Source of the DNA: Chloroflexota bacterium | GTDB lineage: Bacteria; Chloroflexota; Dehalococcoidia; Lucifugimonadales; UBA1127 | Assembly: GCA_026713825.1 (NCBI GenBank) | Contig: JAPONS010000008.1 | Location: 10,682 to 74,681, forward strand | Reading direction: 5' to 3' | Length of the DNA: 64,000 nucleotides | In this document: positions 8,079 through 32,740 of the stretch, piece by piece | Layout: the number at the start of each line of letters is the position of its first letter | How positions within the stretch are numbered: the first letter of the stretch is position 1 | Made by a program: the position numbers and the translations under genes | Notes under the pieces: model-generated | The model's database searches: none | Seen by the model: only the letters and a program-made list of their open reading frames with translations | What the model was told of the DNA's origin: nothing

Positions 8079-9620
8079 TTAGCCTGACTGCCGCGCGAAC
8101 CACCCCTCGAGCGCGTCCACCATGCCCGGGATCGTGTACTCCTCGCCCACGGCGTCCACGCGCACGCCGAGCCCCCGCGCCGTCTCCGCCGTGATCGGCC
8201 CGATGCACGCCACGGCGCACCCGTTCACCAACGTTGGGTCGCCGCCCAGCGCATCCACCAGCCCCCGCACCGTCGACGAGCTCGCGAACGTCGCCGCGTC
8301 CACGCCCTCGGCGAAGACGTCCTTGGCCCGCTCGGCCACATCCTCCCCCGGCCTAGCGCGGTACAGCAACACCTCGTCCACCGAGGCCCCTGCCCTCTGC
8401 AGCTCCTCGATGAGCACGCTCCGTCCCCCCTCGGCCCGCGGCAGCAGCACCCGGTCGCCCGAAGCGAGCATGGGCGCGAGCCCCGCGGCCAGCGCCTCGG
8501 CCACGTACGATTCCGGCATGAAGTCGGCCTTGATCCCGTGCTCCTGCAACGCCCGTGCCGTCCCCGGCCCGATGACCGCCAGCCGCACGCCGCCCAGCGC
8601 CCGCGCGTCGAGCCCCCGCGCCGCCAGCCGGTCGAAGAACAGCCCCACGCCGTTCGCGCTCGTGAACACCAGCCACTGATACGCCGAAATGTCAGCCAGC
8701 GCCTTATCGAGCGGCCCCGCCATGTTTGGCGGGGCTACCGCGCTGTCCAGCGGCTCCACCGCGATGACCGGCAGCTCCACCGGCACGGCCCCCCGCGACG
8801 CCAGCAGCGCGCTCAGCGCCGACGCCTGCTGCCGCGTCCGCGTCACCAGCACCCGCTTCCCGAAGAGCGGGCTCGTGTCGAACCACCGAAGCTGCTCGCG
8901 CAGCGCCGCCACCTGTCCGACGATCGTCACCGCTGGCGGCTTCAACGCCGCATCCTTTACGTGCTCCACCACGTTCGACAGATCGCCTGACACCGTCCGC
9001 TGCTGCTGCGTCGTGCCCCACTCGACCACGCACACCGGCGTGTCCGGCGGCTTGCCTGCCGCTGTGAGCGCCCCCACAACCGAGGGCAGCGTCTCGACGC
9101 CCATGAGCACCACCAGCGTGTCCACCCGCGCCATCGCCTCCCAGTCGACGCCCGACGCGGCCCGCGAGGGGTCCTCGCTCCCCGTCACCACGGCGAAGTT
9201 CGCCGCCACCTTGCGCTGCGTCACCGGTATCCCCGCGTACGCCGCCGCCGCAATGGCCGACGTGACCCCCGGCACCACCTCAAACGACACCGAGGCCGCC
9301 GCCAGCGCCAGAGCCTCTTCGCCCCCGCGCCCGAACACGAACGGGTCGCCGCCCTTGAGCCGCACCACCCGCTTCCCCGCCGTGCCGTGCTCCACCAGCA
9401 GCGCGCTGATCTCCTCCTGCGACATCAGGTGGTCGCCCCGCCGCTTGCCCGCGTTGATGACCAGCGCGTCTTCGCGCACGTGCGTTAGCAGTTGCTCCGC
9501 GATGAGCCGGTCATGCACCACGACGTCCGCCGCCTGCAGCAGCGCCAGCCCTTTGGCCGTGATGAGTCCCGGGTCCCCCGGACCCGCGCCCACCAGCGAG
9601 ACCATCCCCGGCCGGCTCAT
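8079..9620 (-). CDS. cobA-hemD: Fused uroporphyrinogen-III C-methyltransferase / uroporphyrinogen-III synthase
   Basis: ORF trimmed to ATG 9620 (ATGA overlap with the hemC stop). The N-terminal half has VSLVGAGPGDPGLITAKGL...GGDPFVFGRGGEE (SUMT). The C-terminal half is HemD-like. Confidence 0.9.
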   Translation of the reverse strand: MSRPGMVSLVGAGPGDPGLITAKGLALLQAADVVVHDRLIAEQLLTHVREDALVINAGKRRGDHLMSQEEISALLVEHGTAGKRVVRLKGGDPFVFGRGGEEALALAAASVSFEVVPGVTSAIAAAAYAGIPVTQRKVAANFAVVTGSEDPSRAASGVDWEAMARVDTLVVLMGVETLPSVVGALTAAGKPPDTPVCVVEWGTTQQQRTVSGDLSNVVEHVKDAALKPPAVTIVGQVAALREQLRWFDTSPLFGKRVLVTRTRQQASALSALLASRGAVPVELPVIAVEPLDSAVAPPNMAGPLDKALADISAYQWLVFTSANGVGLFFDRLAARGLDARALGGVRLAVIGPGTARALQEHGIKADFMPESYVAEALAAGLAPMLASGDRVLLPRAEGGRSVLIEELQRAGASVDEVLLYRARPGEDVAERAKDVFAEGVDAATFASSSTVRGLVDALGGDPTLVNGCAVACIGPITAETARGLGVRVDAVGEEYTIPGMVDALEGWFARQSG

Positions 9621-10561
9621 GCCCCGTCCTCCGCCAGCAGCGCCGCCGCGCCCTGCTCCAGCAGCTTCTGCGCCAGCTCGCCGCCGAGCGCCTCCGCATC
9701 CCGCGCCTCGCCCGCGACGTAGTCCCGGTACAGCGGCTCGCCGCCGACGCCGGCGACCATGCCGAAGACGCGGATGTACTCGTTCATCACGCTCCCGAAG
9801 CATCCCATCGGCGTGCGGCACCCGCCGCCCATCGCCCGCAGAAACGCCCGCTCCGCCGTGACTTCCCACCGCGTCGCCCGGTGCTCCAGCGCCGCCAGCA
9901 TCCCGAGCAGTTCCCCGTCGTCCGACCGCGTCTGCAGCGCGATGGCTCCCTGCCCGACTGCCGGGATGAACGTCAGCGGGTCCAGTCGCTCCGTCGCCTC
10001 GCCCTCGCGCCCCAGCCGCACAAGCCCGGCCGCCGCAAGCACCAGCGCGTCGTACTGCCCCTCCTGCATCTTCCGTATCCGCGTGCCCACGTTCCCCCGC
10101 ACGTCCTGCACCACCGCGTCAGGCCGCGCGGCCCGCACCAGCGCGGCCCGTCGAGGGCTGCTCGTCCCGACGACCGCCCCCAGCGGCAGCTCCGCCAGCG
10201 TCGCCCCCGAGCGGCTCACCACGACGTCGCACGGGTCCTCGCGCTCCAGCACCGCGGCGATCGCCAACCCCTCCGGCCCCGTCGCCGACATGTCCTTCAG
10301 GCTGTGCGCCGCCATGTCGATGCGCCCATCCAGCAGCGCCGCCTCCAGCTCCTTCGTGAACACACCAAGCCCAAGCTCAGACAGCGGGGTCTCTTGGGAA
10401 GCGTCTCCTGTGGTGGTCACAACCTGGACGTCAACGTCAAATTCGGGGTATTGGGCCCGTAGCGCGTCCACGGCCCGCTCCGCCTGTGCAAGCGCCAGCG
10501 GGCTCCCGCGCGTCCCCACGACGATGCGCTCCCGCGCCGAGGCGGTTTCGCCCGCTGTCAT
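9617..10561 (-). CDS. hemC: Hydroxymethylbilane synthase (porphobilinogen deaminase)
   Basis: IVVGTRGSPLALAQAERAVDALRAQYPEFDVDVQVVTTTGD... Confidence 0.95.
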   Translation of the reverse strand: MTAGETASARERIVVGTRGSPLALAQAERAVDALRAQYPEFDVDVQVVTTTGDASQETPLSELGLGVFTKELEAALLDGRIDMAAHSLKDMSATGPEGLAIAAVLEREDPCDVVVSRSGATLAELPLGAVVGTSSPRRAALVRAARPDAVVQDVRGNVGTRIRKMQEGQYDALVLAAAGLVRLGREGEATERLDPLTFIPAVGQGAIALQTRSDDGELLGMLAALEHRATRWEVTAERAFLRAMGGGCRTPMGCFGSVMNEYIRVFGMVAGVGGEPLYRDYVAGEARDAEALGGELAQKLLEQGAAALLAEDGA

Positions 10562-25730: not shown

Positions 25731-26855
25731 CTAGCCCACCACGGTCGCGCAGATGACGTAGACCTCCAGCGTCCAACTGCCGCTCTGCTCCGACGTCTCT
25801 GCCGCGCTCGCCGTCCAGCCCAGCGGCTTGTCGCCGGGCACGCCCGTCCGCGCCGACGCCGGCAGGCTCACGCCTGCGCTTGCGCCCGTGATGCTCGCGC
25901 CGCCCGCGACCGCGAACAGGTCGCTGCCCGCGTCCGCGCACATCGCCGAGGCGGACTTGTCGTCGCTCGTGGAATCCGAGCTGACCTTCACAAGGGTCAG
26001 GTTGCTGATGCCGGGTTCACCCTGGACGCCCTGCGGGCCGTGCGGGCCCCCAGCGCCCGTGAGGCCGGGAGCGCCGCGTTCGCCGGCCTCACCCTGCGGG
26101 CCGCGCTCGCCCTGCGGGCCCTGCGGGCCAATCGCTCCGGGCGGGCCCATGACGCCCTCGTCACCCTTGATGCCCTGCGGGCCGGTCGGGCCTTGCGTCC
26201 CGGTCTCGCCCTGCGGCCCCTGCGGGCCAACCTCGCCCTGCGGGCCGCGCTGCCCGGGCGGGCCCTGCTCGCCCTGCTCGCCCTGGATCCCCTGGGGGCC
26301 CTGGATCCCCTGCGCGCCGACCAGACCCTGCGGACCCGGAGCACCAATCAGGCCCTGCGGGCCGGTCGGGCCTTGCGGTCCTATCGGGCCTGGCGGACCG
26401 CCGGCCGGGCCTCTCGGACCCTCCGGGCCTGCGGGACCTATCGGGCCCTCGGGACCTATCGGGCCGCGCTCACCCTGGGGACCCTCCGGCCCGGGCGGGC
26501 CGCCCTCCGGGCCGCGCTCACCCACCGGGCCTTGCGGTCCCTCCGCGCCAGTCGCGCCCTGCGGCCCGCGATCGCCCTCCGCCCCCTGCGGACCCTGCGA
26601 CCCCTGCGGGCCTGCCGGACCCCGAAGTCCAGGCGACCCAATCGGCCCCTGGGCTCCGTCCTGCCCCGCCGCTCCCGTCGGACCCTGCGGGCCCGTCGCC
26701 CCTTGCGGGCCCGCGACCCCTTGCGGGCCCGTCGGACCCTGATCGCCCGTGCACGCCGGGAGCAACAGGAGGCCCATCAGGAGGAGAAGTGGGATCCAAA
26801 GACTGCGCCGCCAGACGCTGGAAGACTTCAGGTGCTTCGTATCGACTACCCTCAT
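25731..26855 (-). CDS. Collagen triple-helix-repeat lipoprotein with ~95-aa C-terminal globular domain
   Basis: ORF trimmed to ATG 26855 behind an AAGGAAGG SD. It has a signal plus lipobox (LLLLPAC), then roughly 85 Gly-X-Y triplets ([19 protein letters not shown]...), then a non-repetitive tail ending [14 protein letters not shown]. Confidence 0.85.
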
Positions 26856-27055: not shown

Positions 27056-27895
27056 CTAGCTCGCACGCCGACGCCGCGCCCACACCAGCCCCAGCAGCCC
27101 CAGCCCCGCCAGCAGCACGTACCCGTCCGCCCGCGACCCCTGCCCGCACGTCCCCGGCTCGTCCGGCTCCGGCGTCGGCGTCGCCTCCACCTCCGGTGTC
27201 GCCGTCGGCGTCGCCGTCACGATGATCGGCGGCAACGGCGTCGGCGTCGGCGCCGGCGTCGCCGTCGGCTCCGGCGTCGGCACAGCCGTCGCCGTCGGCA
27301 CTGCCGTCGGCGATGGCGTCGGTGTCTCCGTCGCCACAGCCGTAGCCGTCGGCGATGGCACAGGCGTCGCCGGGACCGCCGTCGGCGTGGCCGTTGCCGC
27401 CGGTGTCGGCGTCGCTGTCGGATCCGGCGCCGGCGGCAGCGCCGGGAACGTCAGGTTGAACCCGTCCACGACGTTCGGTCCCGGAATGAACGTCGCCACC
27501 TCCGCCGCCGTCAGCCCCTCCGGCCCCAGGTGCGCCGTGATCGTGTTCTCCACCGCGATGATGTGGAAGCTGATGTTGCGGAAGTTGAACACCACGTTGG
27601 TGGGCCCGACGATGAGGTTCTGGTACTCGCCGTTCCTGGTGGCCCGCGGCCGCGACTCGTAGCCGTCGATGACGGGGCTGGGGCTCTCTATCCGCGCGAC
27701 GACCATCAGCCCTTGTGGCGCGGCCTCTCCCCCGACCGTCACCGTGCCCGAGTACGTGACCGGGCCCGGCGGCGGCTGTCCTCCTATCTGGGCCTGGACG
27801 TCCCGCCCGCCAGCCAGCGCAAACGCCAGCAGCGCGGCAAAGACGGCAAACGTCAGGATGAGGGCAACCCTGGTGCGGTGTGCTGCAAGTAGCAT
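27056..27895 (-). CDS. Secreted protein: signal peptide, ~125-aa domain, Pro/Thr-rich linker, Cys-containing C-terminal TM + Arg-rich tail
   Basis: ORF trimmed to ATG 27895. Signal MLLAAHRTRVALILTFAVFAALLAFALAGGRDVQAQ, linker ...PTATPTPAATATPTAVPATPVPSPTA..., and C-terminus ...PEPDEPGTCGQGSRADGYVLLAGLGLLGLVWARRRRAS. Confidence 0.75.
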   Translation of the reverse strand: MLLAAHRTRVALILTFAVFAALLAFALAGGRDVQAQIGGQPPPGPVTYSGTVTVGGEAAPQGLMVVARIESPSPVIDGYESRPRATRNGEYQNLIVGPTNVVFNFRNISFHIIAVENTITAHLGPEGLTAAEVATFIPGPNVVDGFNLTFPALPPAPDPTATPTPAATATPTAVPATPVPSPTATAVATETPTPSPTAVPTATAVPTPEPTATPAPTPTPLPPIIVTATPTATPEVEATPTPEPDEPGTCGQGSRADGYVLLAGLGLLGLVWARRRRAS

Positions 27896-28001
27896 GGTCT
27901 TCTCCCGTATCTGAAAGCTCACCAACAGTGAGCCATATTCGTGGCCTTCCCGGGTGGACGCCGCTCAAAACACAACGGCCCGGTCAGCCGACCTGTACAG
28001 G

Positions 28002-28030
28002 ATTATCCCCGCTCACCGCGCATTGGTCAA
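28002..28030 (-). promoter_or_regulatory. Promoter TTGACC-17-GATAAT for the Pro/Thr-rich protein gene
   Basis: Minus strand: TTGACC (28030-28025), 17-nt spacer, GATAAT (28007-28002). This predicts a ~100-nt leader. Confidence 0.5.
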
Positions 28031-28280: not shown

Positions 28281-28312
28281 GGGGGCCTCCCCCCGCGAGG
28301 AGGGAGGCCCCC
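28281..28312 (-). terminator. Hairpin terminator downstream of the giant surface-protein gene
   Basis: GGGGGCCTCCC...GGGAGGCCCCC has 11-bp arms. The minus strand continues TTCGATTTGCC. Confidence 0.5.
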
Positions 28313-32199: not shown

Positions 32200-32427
32200 C
32201 TAGCCCTGGAAGGCGGCAAACCCCCCAATGATGGCGGCGGCAAGGACCACCGCCCCGCCTAACACCGCCAGCGTCAGCCGGTCGATGCGGGCGTTGACGG
32301 CGGCGATAGCCGCCGTGTGGACGCGCTGCTGCTCTATCACCATCTCCAACAACCCCTCCAGCCGCCCAACACGAAGGGCAAGCTCCTGGGCCTGCTCGGT
32401 CTGCGGTGGCTGCTGCTGCGTCGTCAT
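32200..32427 (-). CDS. Small tail-anchored coiled-coil membrane protein, paralog 1 (75 aa)
   Basis: MTTQQQPPQTEQAQELALRVGRLEGLLEMVIEQQRVHTAAIAAVNARIDRLTLAVLGGAVVLAAAIIGGFAAFQG. A GGAGG SD precedes it, and it has its own extended -10 promoter. Confidence 0.65.
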   Translation of the reverse strand: MTTQQQPPQTEQAQELALRVGRLEGLLEMVIEQQRVHTAAIAAVNARIDRLTLAVLGGAVVLAAAIIGGFAAFQG

Positions 32428-32491: not shown

Positions 32492-32740
32492 CTAGCCCTG
32501 GAAGGCCGCAAACCCCCCGATGATGGCGGCGGCAAGGACCACGGCCCCGCCCATCACAGCAAGCGTCATCCGATCAATGCGCTCGCTCAGCCGGTCGATG
32601 CGGGCTTCCAAACGGTCCATGCGATCGCTCAGCCCCCGCTGCTGCTCTATCACCGCCTCCATCAACCCCTCCAGCCGCCCAACACGAAGGGCAAGCTCCT
32701 GGGGCTGCTCAGTCTGCGGCTGGTCCTGCTGCGTCGTCAT
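32492..32740 (-). CDS. Small tail-anchored coiled-coil membrane protein, paralog 2 (82 aa)
   Basis: MTTQQDQPQTEQPQELALRVGRLEGLMEAVIEQQRGLSDRMDRLEARIDRLSERIDRMTLAVMGGAVVLAAAIIGGFAAFQG. The ends are near-identical to paralog 1 and the centre differs by one heptad. Confidence 0.65.
   Translation of the reverse strand: MTTQQDQPQTEQPQELALRVGRLEGLMEAVIEQQRGLSDRMDRLEARIDRLSERIDRMTLAVMGGAVVLAAAIIGGFAAFQG

Follow-up and report, generated by a model that had tools for sequence, protein, structure and literature searches.

A secreted protein with a Cys-containing tail, a proposed surface stalk

The stretch of DNA analysed here (the window) comprises 64,000 nt of contig JAPONS010000008.1 from an uncultured marine bacterium of the Dehalococcoidia (Chloroflexota). 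On its reverse strand lies the gene for a 279-amino acid (aa) protein, here called the Cys-tail protein, which is predicted to be secreted and ends in a short Cys-containing motif, a hydrophobic helix and an Arg cluster. It is this ending, conserved in one bacterial lineage and missing from the catalogues of C-terminal sorting signals, that is considered here, together with the large secreted protein encoded directly upstream.

The gene lies within an open reading frame (ORF) spanning 27056..27925 (-), and translation is likely to start at the ATG at 27895, 7 nt after a GGGAGA ribosome-binding site. There are many spurious overlapping ORFs around it, and the local GC content is 65-73%. That the gene is itself a spurious high-GC ORF can be ruled out by its codon GC of 0.67/0.60/0.88 (positions 1/2/3), as expected of a real coding frame where GC is high, by a family of homologues that spans GC 0.37-0.70, and by ratios of nonsynonymous to synonymous substitution rates (dN/dS) below 1. 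The product is 100% identical to NCBI MCY4623512.1 (OXC99_00670), a hypothetical protein from a metagenome-assembled genome (MAG) labelled 'Chloroflexi bacterium'.

The original prediction for this gene, a secreted protein with a signal peptide, a beta-rich domain and a Pro/Thr linker, agrees with the AlphaFold2 (AF2) model and with the composition of the protein (Table 1). An A-Q pair precedes the start of the folded domain, PPPGP, and is kept across the family in an alignment of diverse homologues. The domain is modelled as a beta-sandwich of nine strands, with block means of the predicted local distance difference test (pLDDT) of 95-98 for residues 41-150 and 94 for residues 151-160, and it is present as two tandem copies in distant homologues. 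The linker that follows consists of 30% Pro, 30% Thr and 20% Ala. The protein end reads PDE-PGTCGQGS-RADG-YVLLAGLGLLGLVWA-RRRR-AS; its sole Cys is Cys250 (codon 27146-27148), and the succession of PGTCGQGS, hydrophobic helix and RRRR is the tripartite design, resembling that of a sorting signal, that had been proposed. A Pfam search of the protein found no domain, PDB sequence searches matched Pro/Thr linkers only, and a Foldseek search of the beta-sandwich against the PDB gave weak matches only (Ole e 1, transthyretin-like, pilin CnaB domains and SlaB).

Table 1. Features of the window. Positions are those of the whole 64-kb window; residue numbers are those of the 279-aa Cys-tail protein.
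Feature	Position	Strand	Basis
Cys-tail protein, coding sequence, 279 aa (stop codon 27056-27058)	27056..27895	(-)	ORF list, codon GC, homologues
Predicted signal peptide, residues 1-36 (h-region helix 4-28, ends ...VQAQ)	27788..27895	(-)	AF2 and sequence
Beta-sandwich domain, residues 37-155	27431..27787	(-)	AF2, alignment
Pro/Thr/Ala linker (stalk), 88 aa, residues 156-243	27167..27430	(-)	Composition, low pLDDT, dN/dS 0.77
Signature motif PGTCGQGS, residues 247-254	27134..27157	(-)	Invariance in orthologues
Predicted hydrophobic Gly-rich transmembrane segment YVLLAGLGLLGLVWA, residues 259-273	27077..27121	(-)	AF2, conservation, sequence
RRRR cluster, residues 274-277, predicted cytoplasmic	27065..27076	(-)	Conservation in 23 orthologues
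Promoter-like site TTGACC-17-GATAAT, upstream of the Cys-tail gene	28002..28030	(-)	Consensus match only
GC-rich terminator-like hairpin, 14 bp, after the large partner gene	28281..28312	(-)	Consensus match only
Large partner gene, secreted protein of ~1124 aa	28345..31719	(-)	ORF list, homologous loci
Downstream collagen-repeat protein	25731..26855	(-)	Pfam Collagen, E 5e-37
Small protein, 75 aa, just upstream of the large partner gene	32200-32427	(-)	
Small protein, 82 aa, tandem paralogue of the preceding	32492-32740	(-)	
Fused TP_methylase + HEM4 gene	8079-9869	(-)	

Conservation of the tail and signs of purifying selection

A protein search returned 287 homologues of the Cys-tail protein at E ≤ 0.01. 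About 40 close homologues of 250-290 aa end in (A/P)GTCG(Q/R)(G/S)(S/G)-x2-(D/E)-x3-LLAGxxLLGL(V/I)W-RR(R/K), and more than 70 distant ones of 340-450 aa, including one from a SAR202 MAG, end in GG(G)C-x10-14-(A/G)GL(G/A)N-LLFLLAPLAL-RRR. Within the tail of 23 orthologues (54-89% overall identity), the invariant positions are G248-S254 (G-T-C-G-Q-G-S), D257, LLAGLGL, G269, L270 and R274-R276, with R277 at least 90% conserved. The Cys stands out at every distance: it is the one and only Cys in 98 of 116 homologues, the G-C pair is retained even in homologues of 30-40% identity, and in a set of 64 diverse tails conservation reaches at least 90% for both the Cys and the Gly before it.

Substitution rates were estimated by the Nei-Gojobori method for seven orthologous genes (the window and loci L001, L002 and L006-L009). 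The dN/dS ratio is 0.23 for the tail (dS 0.56), 0.49 for the beta-sandwich (dS 0.61) and 0.77 for the linker (dS 0.34); as the dS of the tail is about that of the domain, it is the amino-acid sequence of the tail that is under the strongest selection in the protein. These comparisons indicate that the tail is a conserved element under purifying selection and not a generic anchor.

They also bear on the main alternative to a processed tail, in which the C-terminus is a permanent, uncleaved transmembrane anchor, its Gly-rich helix and motif serving in packing or oligomerisation and its Cys in a disulfide between copies of the protein or in some other structural contact at the surface of the membrane. 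The helix does contain many small residues (AGLGLLG), a property of packing helices. Against this, the tail is under more constraint than the folded domain, and the Cys persists though the rest of the tail has deeply diverged.

When 185,579 species genomes were scanned with the close orthologues, the strict signature [EG]PGTCGQGS / D[AG][YF]VLLAGLG was found in five Dehalococcoidia MAGs only, and all 5 loci belong to the Cys-tail family. The tail is conserved in one lineage, the Dehalococcoidia, with a diverged version in their SAR202 relatives, much as had been suggested when it was first described as a possible lineage-specific variant. An orthologue is also found on a TARA Oceans contig with a GC content of 37% (L011, 10001-10228 and upstream), in which the gene is broken by a run of N, so that the database holds only a 75-aa fragment (P0128).

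Other carriers of the tail and other endings of the family

When 1.84 billion representative proteins were searched by full HMMER with a profile built from 19 close tails, only 11 matches at E ≤ 1e-3 were obtained: members of the family, three artefacts, and P0125 and P0126. The last two are C-terminal ends of a protein that its source calls a peptide/nickel ABC substrate-binding protein, with an ABC permease gene next downstream. The tail of this protein reads GGGCGRGSNIELVYPLAGLALLGLVFRRR, and its pattern, GGGCGRG..E...LAGLALLGLVFRRR, is related to that of the Cys tail. Linker and tail are found on three closer homologues of the substrate-binding protein, whereas five more distant ones, including a Thermomicrobiales protein, end at the globular domain. 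This distribution shows that an unrelated extracytoplasmic protein acquired linker and tail together, which counts against a permanent anchor.

Conversely, the same C-terminal slot in the beta-sandwich family can be filled by other elements. P0098 ends in LPVTG-helix-RR (TIGR01167 score 15.2, cut-off 15.9), P0043/P0044 have a dockerin (PF00404) in the tail position, and three further proteins have helices without Cys. The LPVTG and dockerin endings imply that the anchor is interchangeable across lineages; the use by four family members of helices without Cys as plain anchors favours a permanent anchor, as does the presence of the tail on one or two protein families only. Taken together, the exchange of endings and the second carrier show the tail to be a transferable C-terminal module, specifically recognised and in the design class of Cys-containing sorting signals.

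Other searches for carriers gave little. There was no other ORF with a Cys, transmembrane and Arg tail in the window or in loci L001-L010, a word-index search with the tail alone returned 2 matches, and of two metagenome scans for the distant type of tail, one gave 451 pattern matches, none confirmed, and the other gave 8 chance matches in wrong contexts.

Scores against curated sorting-signal models

The window tail was scored against the curated tail models of NCBIfam release 20, as were the 64 diverse tails at E ≤ 0.05. It falls below all of the cut-offs, the scores being 14.4-14.7 for TIGR03382 (GC_trans_RRR; cut-off 15.85) and 10.9 for TIGR03901 (MYXO-CTERM; cut-off 20), and so bears out the original prediction that the motif matches no known signal exactly. 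The commonest near-matches among the 64 tails were to TIGR03901 (12 tails), TIGR03382 (7) and JDVT-CTERM (5). Of the tails scored individually, that of one orthologue alone passes a curated cut-off (TIGR03382, 16.2 versus 15.85), and that of one distant homologue matches TIGR03901 over nearly its full length with a score of 19.8 versus 20. Tails of relatives also score below threshold for CGP-CTERM (TIGR04288, 12.8 versus 21) and JDVT-CTERM (NF033191, 18.2 versus 27). By these scores the MYXO-CTERM models are the closest curated signal, and no model is dedicated to the Cys tail.

The enzymes first proposed for the tail were an exosortase or archaeosortase, a rhombosortase or a sortase, which would cut it and join the protein to lipid, polysaccharide or the wall. 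The general tripartite design fits such processing, as do the LPVTG-type tail of one family member and weak matches to the PEP-CTERM-type models. There is also precedent in archaeal S-layer (surface-layer) glycoproteins with Thr-rich stalks, which use PGF-CTERM and ArtA. The matches to the PEP-CTERM-type models, however, are confined to the helix and Arg cluster and lie below the cut-offs, and no PEP, PGF, GlyGly-before-helix or LPXTG motif is conserved. A PEP does occur in the window protein, in 'TPEPDEP' 15 residues before the helix; it is neither conserved in the family nor correctly placed, and was rejected as a PEP-CTERM motif on these grounds. Pfam (PF07589) gives no match, and TIGR02595 scores 11.9 versus 16 in a relative. 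The GlyGly-CTERM model TIGR03501 gave no match at either E ≤ 10 or E ≤ 0.05; a PGF motif is lacking, and TIGR04126 matches 1 of the 64 tails, at E 0.039 and below threshold; LPXTG is absent from the window protein. What is conserved instead is a Cys, the hallmark of tags linked to CPBP proteases (bioRxiv 10.1101/2023.06.07.544157). Since the motifs recognised by exosortases, archaeosortases, rhombosortases and sortases are absent, we consider processing by any of these highly improbable.

For all four of the described Cys-containing tags, MYXO-, JDVT-, Synerg- and CGP-CTERM, the enzymes named are Mrt proteases, which are CPBP/Rce1-like (Haft 2023, bioRxiv 10.1101/2023.06.07.544157; Guo et al. 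2025, PMC11980579), and it is this family that takes the place of the enzymes of the original prediction. For MYXO-CTERM, cleavage by MrtX has been found by experiment to depend on the Cys, and prior lipidation of the Cys has been proposed, not shown (PMC11980579). That each of the four tripartite tails of this type has been given a processing protease, in one case through experiment, speaks against a permanent anchor for the Cys-tail protein. Chloroflexota are absent from the papers on Cys-containing signals, and a search of the literature found no description of a signal of this kind from that phylum elsewhere.

A large secreted protein encoded directly upstream

Directly upstream of the Cys-tail gene is a gene for a large protein with a signal peptide and without an anchor, a Pfam domain or a sequence relative in the PDB. 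A homologous large protein of 900-1280 aa is encoded in this position in 15 distinct loci (the window, L001, L002, which is on the same chromosome as L010, L006-L009, L011, L020, L021, L024/L025, L026/L027 and L028), with hrcA and/or dnaJ adjacent. The paired loci span GC 0.37-0.70, from the TARA contig L011 at 0.37, and include that of P0057 (L024/L025) and that of the SAR202 MAG (L026/L027); their large proteins are homologous at E 1e-34 to 0. The distant homologues P0045 and P0095 lack the partner gene.

The N-terminal halves of the large proteins are variable and their C-terminal parts conserved. The C-terminal half contains two PGWNL(I/V)SLP-like motifs and ends in G(K/Q)GYW(L/V)(Y/F)...(I/V)P, which in the window is GKGYWLY...IP. 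A single-sequence AF2 model of the partner was useless (pLDDT 32). Its Cys residues occur in even numbers and in close pairs, and this leads us to reject a disulfide between Cys250 and the partner: with all of them paired, there is no free Cys for a heterologous bond, a further point against the Cys serving a permanent anchor in this way. The large partner is a candidate envelope lattice protein.

A hairpin after the partner gene and a promoter-like site before the Cys-tail gene (Table 1) suggest that the two genes belong to separate transcription units, the hairpin lying between them; both are consensus matches only.

Neighbouring genes and other observations

Downstream of the Cys-tail gene is that of a collagen-repeat protein, which has an N-terminal lipobox-like signal, LLLPAC, and a non-collagen C-terminal domain of ~90 aa with two Cys; this gene is limited to the closest clade (the window, L001, L002 and L006-L009). 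The surface-protein genes are flanked on one side by an ATP synthase operon, an MFS transporter and a Rex-like gene, and on the other by hrcA-grpE-dnaJ-prmA. The tandem paralogous small proteins just upstream of the partner gene, which match no family, each begin with a Gln-rich stretch, continue with a segment resembling a coiled coil (RLEARIDRLSERIDR) and end in a hydrophobic helix.

GC content falls from ~0.69-0.73 (4-28 kb) to ~0.59-0.65 (28-64 kb), with the surface-protein gene cluster at the boundary, and GC skew is negative across the window. Transposase/integrase genes (rve, DDE_Tnp) lie between the surface-protein genes and hrcA in L002 (13554-15923) and L024 (5103-6428, 12195-13160 and 19960-21044), which suggests that this region is an insertion hotspot. 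Elsewhere in the window, a gene fusing TP_methylase (tetrapyrrole methylase) to HEM4 (uroporphyrinogen-III synthase) lies in a haem/sirohaem biosynthesis cluster.

A proposed processed stalk and S-layer-like lattice

In the deep ocean and in sediments, few bacteria are as abundant as the Dehalococcoidia and SAR202, of which sponge-associated members are also known; to our knowledge their envelope has barely been characterised at the molecular level. Published work describes the marine Dehalococcoidia as monoderm bacteria that have lost peptidoglycan and bear S-layers (PMC10284905). The conserved gene pairing, set against such an envelope, points to an arrangement of lattice protein and membrane stalk like that of SlaA and SlaB.

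To the explanation that we favour, taken as a whole, we give about an even chance (roughly 0.5): the Cys-tail protein would be a cell-surface stalk with a processed tail that serves as tether for a lattice of its partner. As its sequence suggests, the protein would be exported through Sec by its N-terminal signal peptide until the C-terminal helix stops transfer and leaves RRRR in the cytoplasm, and the linker would hold the beta-sandwich off the membrane. By analogy with the Cys-containing tags, Cys250 would then receive a modification, probably a lipid, before an intramembrane protease takes off the helix and leaves a lipid-anchored protein; the most likely candidate for the protease is a CPBP/Rce1-like enzyme encoded elsewhere in the genome. 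That Cys250 is modified and the helix then removed, most plausibly by a CPBP-type enzyme, we judge to fall somewhat short of an even chance. The conserved gene pairing further suggests that the beta-sandwich may dock onto the large partner, at its conserved C-terminal half, and so tether an S-layer-like lattice, a contact that we propose from synteny and hold more tentatively still.

Several observations weigh against this explanation. Neither the window nor the ±10 kb around the annotated loci contains a gene for a CPBP protein (PF02517), a rhomboid, an exosortase or a sortase; the polytopic ORFs of the window encode SecY, ATP synthase subunit a and an MFS transporter. A sorting enzyme that serves several substrates is usually encoded away from them, so that the absence of one near these loci is weak evidence, though it counts in favour of a permanent anchor. 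Of the two findings that would together have reduced the tail to a plain anchor, that no other protein shares it and that no sorting enzyme exists, the first does not apply, as the tail is common to orthologues and to an unrelated substrate-binding family, while for the second no candidate enzyme lies within the regions just named. The tail also reaches few proteins: its close profile met one unrelated family only among the 11 matches, and the strict signature is confined to the Cys-tail family, so that nothing shows many substrates per genome, as is typical of sorting systems such as PEP-CTERM and MYXO-CTERM. The window tail scores below every curated cut-off. In a monoderm cell the transmembrane helix would anchor the protein without processing, and no extra sorting step is needed. 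The S-layer role, finally, is drawn from synteny and analogy, the fold match to SlaB being weak (8qox_B, E 0.09, Foldseek). With no sorting enzyme found in the regions covered, processing and lipidation of Cys250 are steps that we infer. In view of these points, we regard a permanent anchor as a substantial possibility, while not the one that we favour.

The two genes, encoding an anchorless secreted protein and a Cys-tailed stalk, provide concrete candidates for the lattice of the envelope and for the tether that would hold it to the membrane. Were the tail processed, Cys-containing sorting signals would extend to a monoderm phylum without an outer membrane or type II secretion, which would help to separate the lipidation and cleavage step of the pathway from the secretion step, and a new hidden Markov model (HMM) could be used to annotate proteins now labelled hypothetical.

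Relationship to known sorting and envelope systems

The closest resemblance is to MYXO-CTERM, which shares with the Cys tail a Gly-Cys signature with an invariant Cys, a spacer, an uncharged transmembrane helix and an Arg cluster, and which likewise comes after a disordered linker, as the last part of surface proteins exported by Sec. However, MYXO-CTERM hosts (Myxococcota/Bradymonadales) are diderm and have type II secretion, whereas the hosts of the Cys tail are Dehalococcoidia MAGs of the Chloroflexota, a phylum regarded as monoderm (PMC10284905), so that there is no place for type II secretion through an outer membrane. The signature GTCGQGS..D is longer than the GC or GCGC of MYXO-CTERM, which occurs on dozens of proteins per genome as opposed to the one or two families seen here, and no MrtX-like gene (PF02517) was found within ±10 kb of the annotated homologue loci. 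HMM score and host both differ, and a single unrelated carrier family was seen; the tail is a conserved, uncatalogued Cys-containing tripartite module of Dehalococcoidia and SAR202, with MYXO-CTERM the closest known signal.

The tails of CGP-CTERM (Thermococcales, predicted MrtA), JDVT-CTERM (MrtJ) and Synerg-CTERM (MrtS) belong to the same class of Cys-containing tripartite tails. Distant homologues of the Cys-tail protein have a conserved Pro in the helix, as do JDVT-CTERM (a DP motif) and Synerg-CTERM. The window tail itself differs from CGP- and JDVT-CTERM in having C-G-Q rather than CGP, no DP in the helix and a longer spacer, and JDVT-CTERM targets adjoin the gene of their protease, whereas the Cys-tail gene does not. 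The envelope of CGP-CTERM cells consists of a membrane and an S-layer, which makes them the closest cell-biological analogue of the Cys-tail host.

At the level of the gene pair, the arrangement is reminiscent of SlaA and SlaB of the Sulfolobales, in which a large anchorless lattice-type protein is also encoded next to a smaller protein; SlaB, like the Cys-tail protein, combines one or more beta-sandwich domains with an extended stalk and is anchored in the membrane at its C-terminus. The two pairs are not homologous in sequence, the stalk of SlaB is a coiled coil rather than a Pro/Thr linker, and gene order and lineage are unrelated. The haloarchaeal PGF-CTERM/archaeosortase A system also has much in common with the Cys-tail protein, in that a secreted protein with a Thr-rich, probably glycosylated stalk and a tripartite tail is anchored in an envelope free of peptidoglycan, although the conserved residue here is a Cys, and the PGF-CTERM tail is on the large protein itself whereas the Cys tail is on a small stalk protein. 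The most far-reaching proposal is a 'Cys-CTERM' sorting system, so far undescribed, of marine Dehalococcoidia/SAR202 that lack peptidoglycan, in which an intramembrane CPBP-type protease and a lipid transferase would replace the C-terminal helix by a lipid anchor on Cys250 of a stalk that holds the S-layer-like lattice protein encoded beside it. We consider the proposal in this full form unlikely; if true, it would be a bacterial counterpart of archaeal envelope anchoring by PGF-CTERM/ArtA or CGP-CTERM/MrtA.

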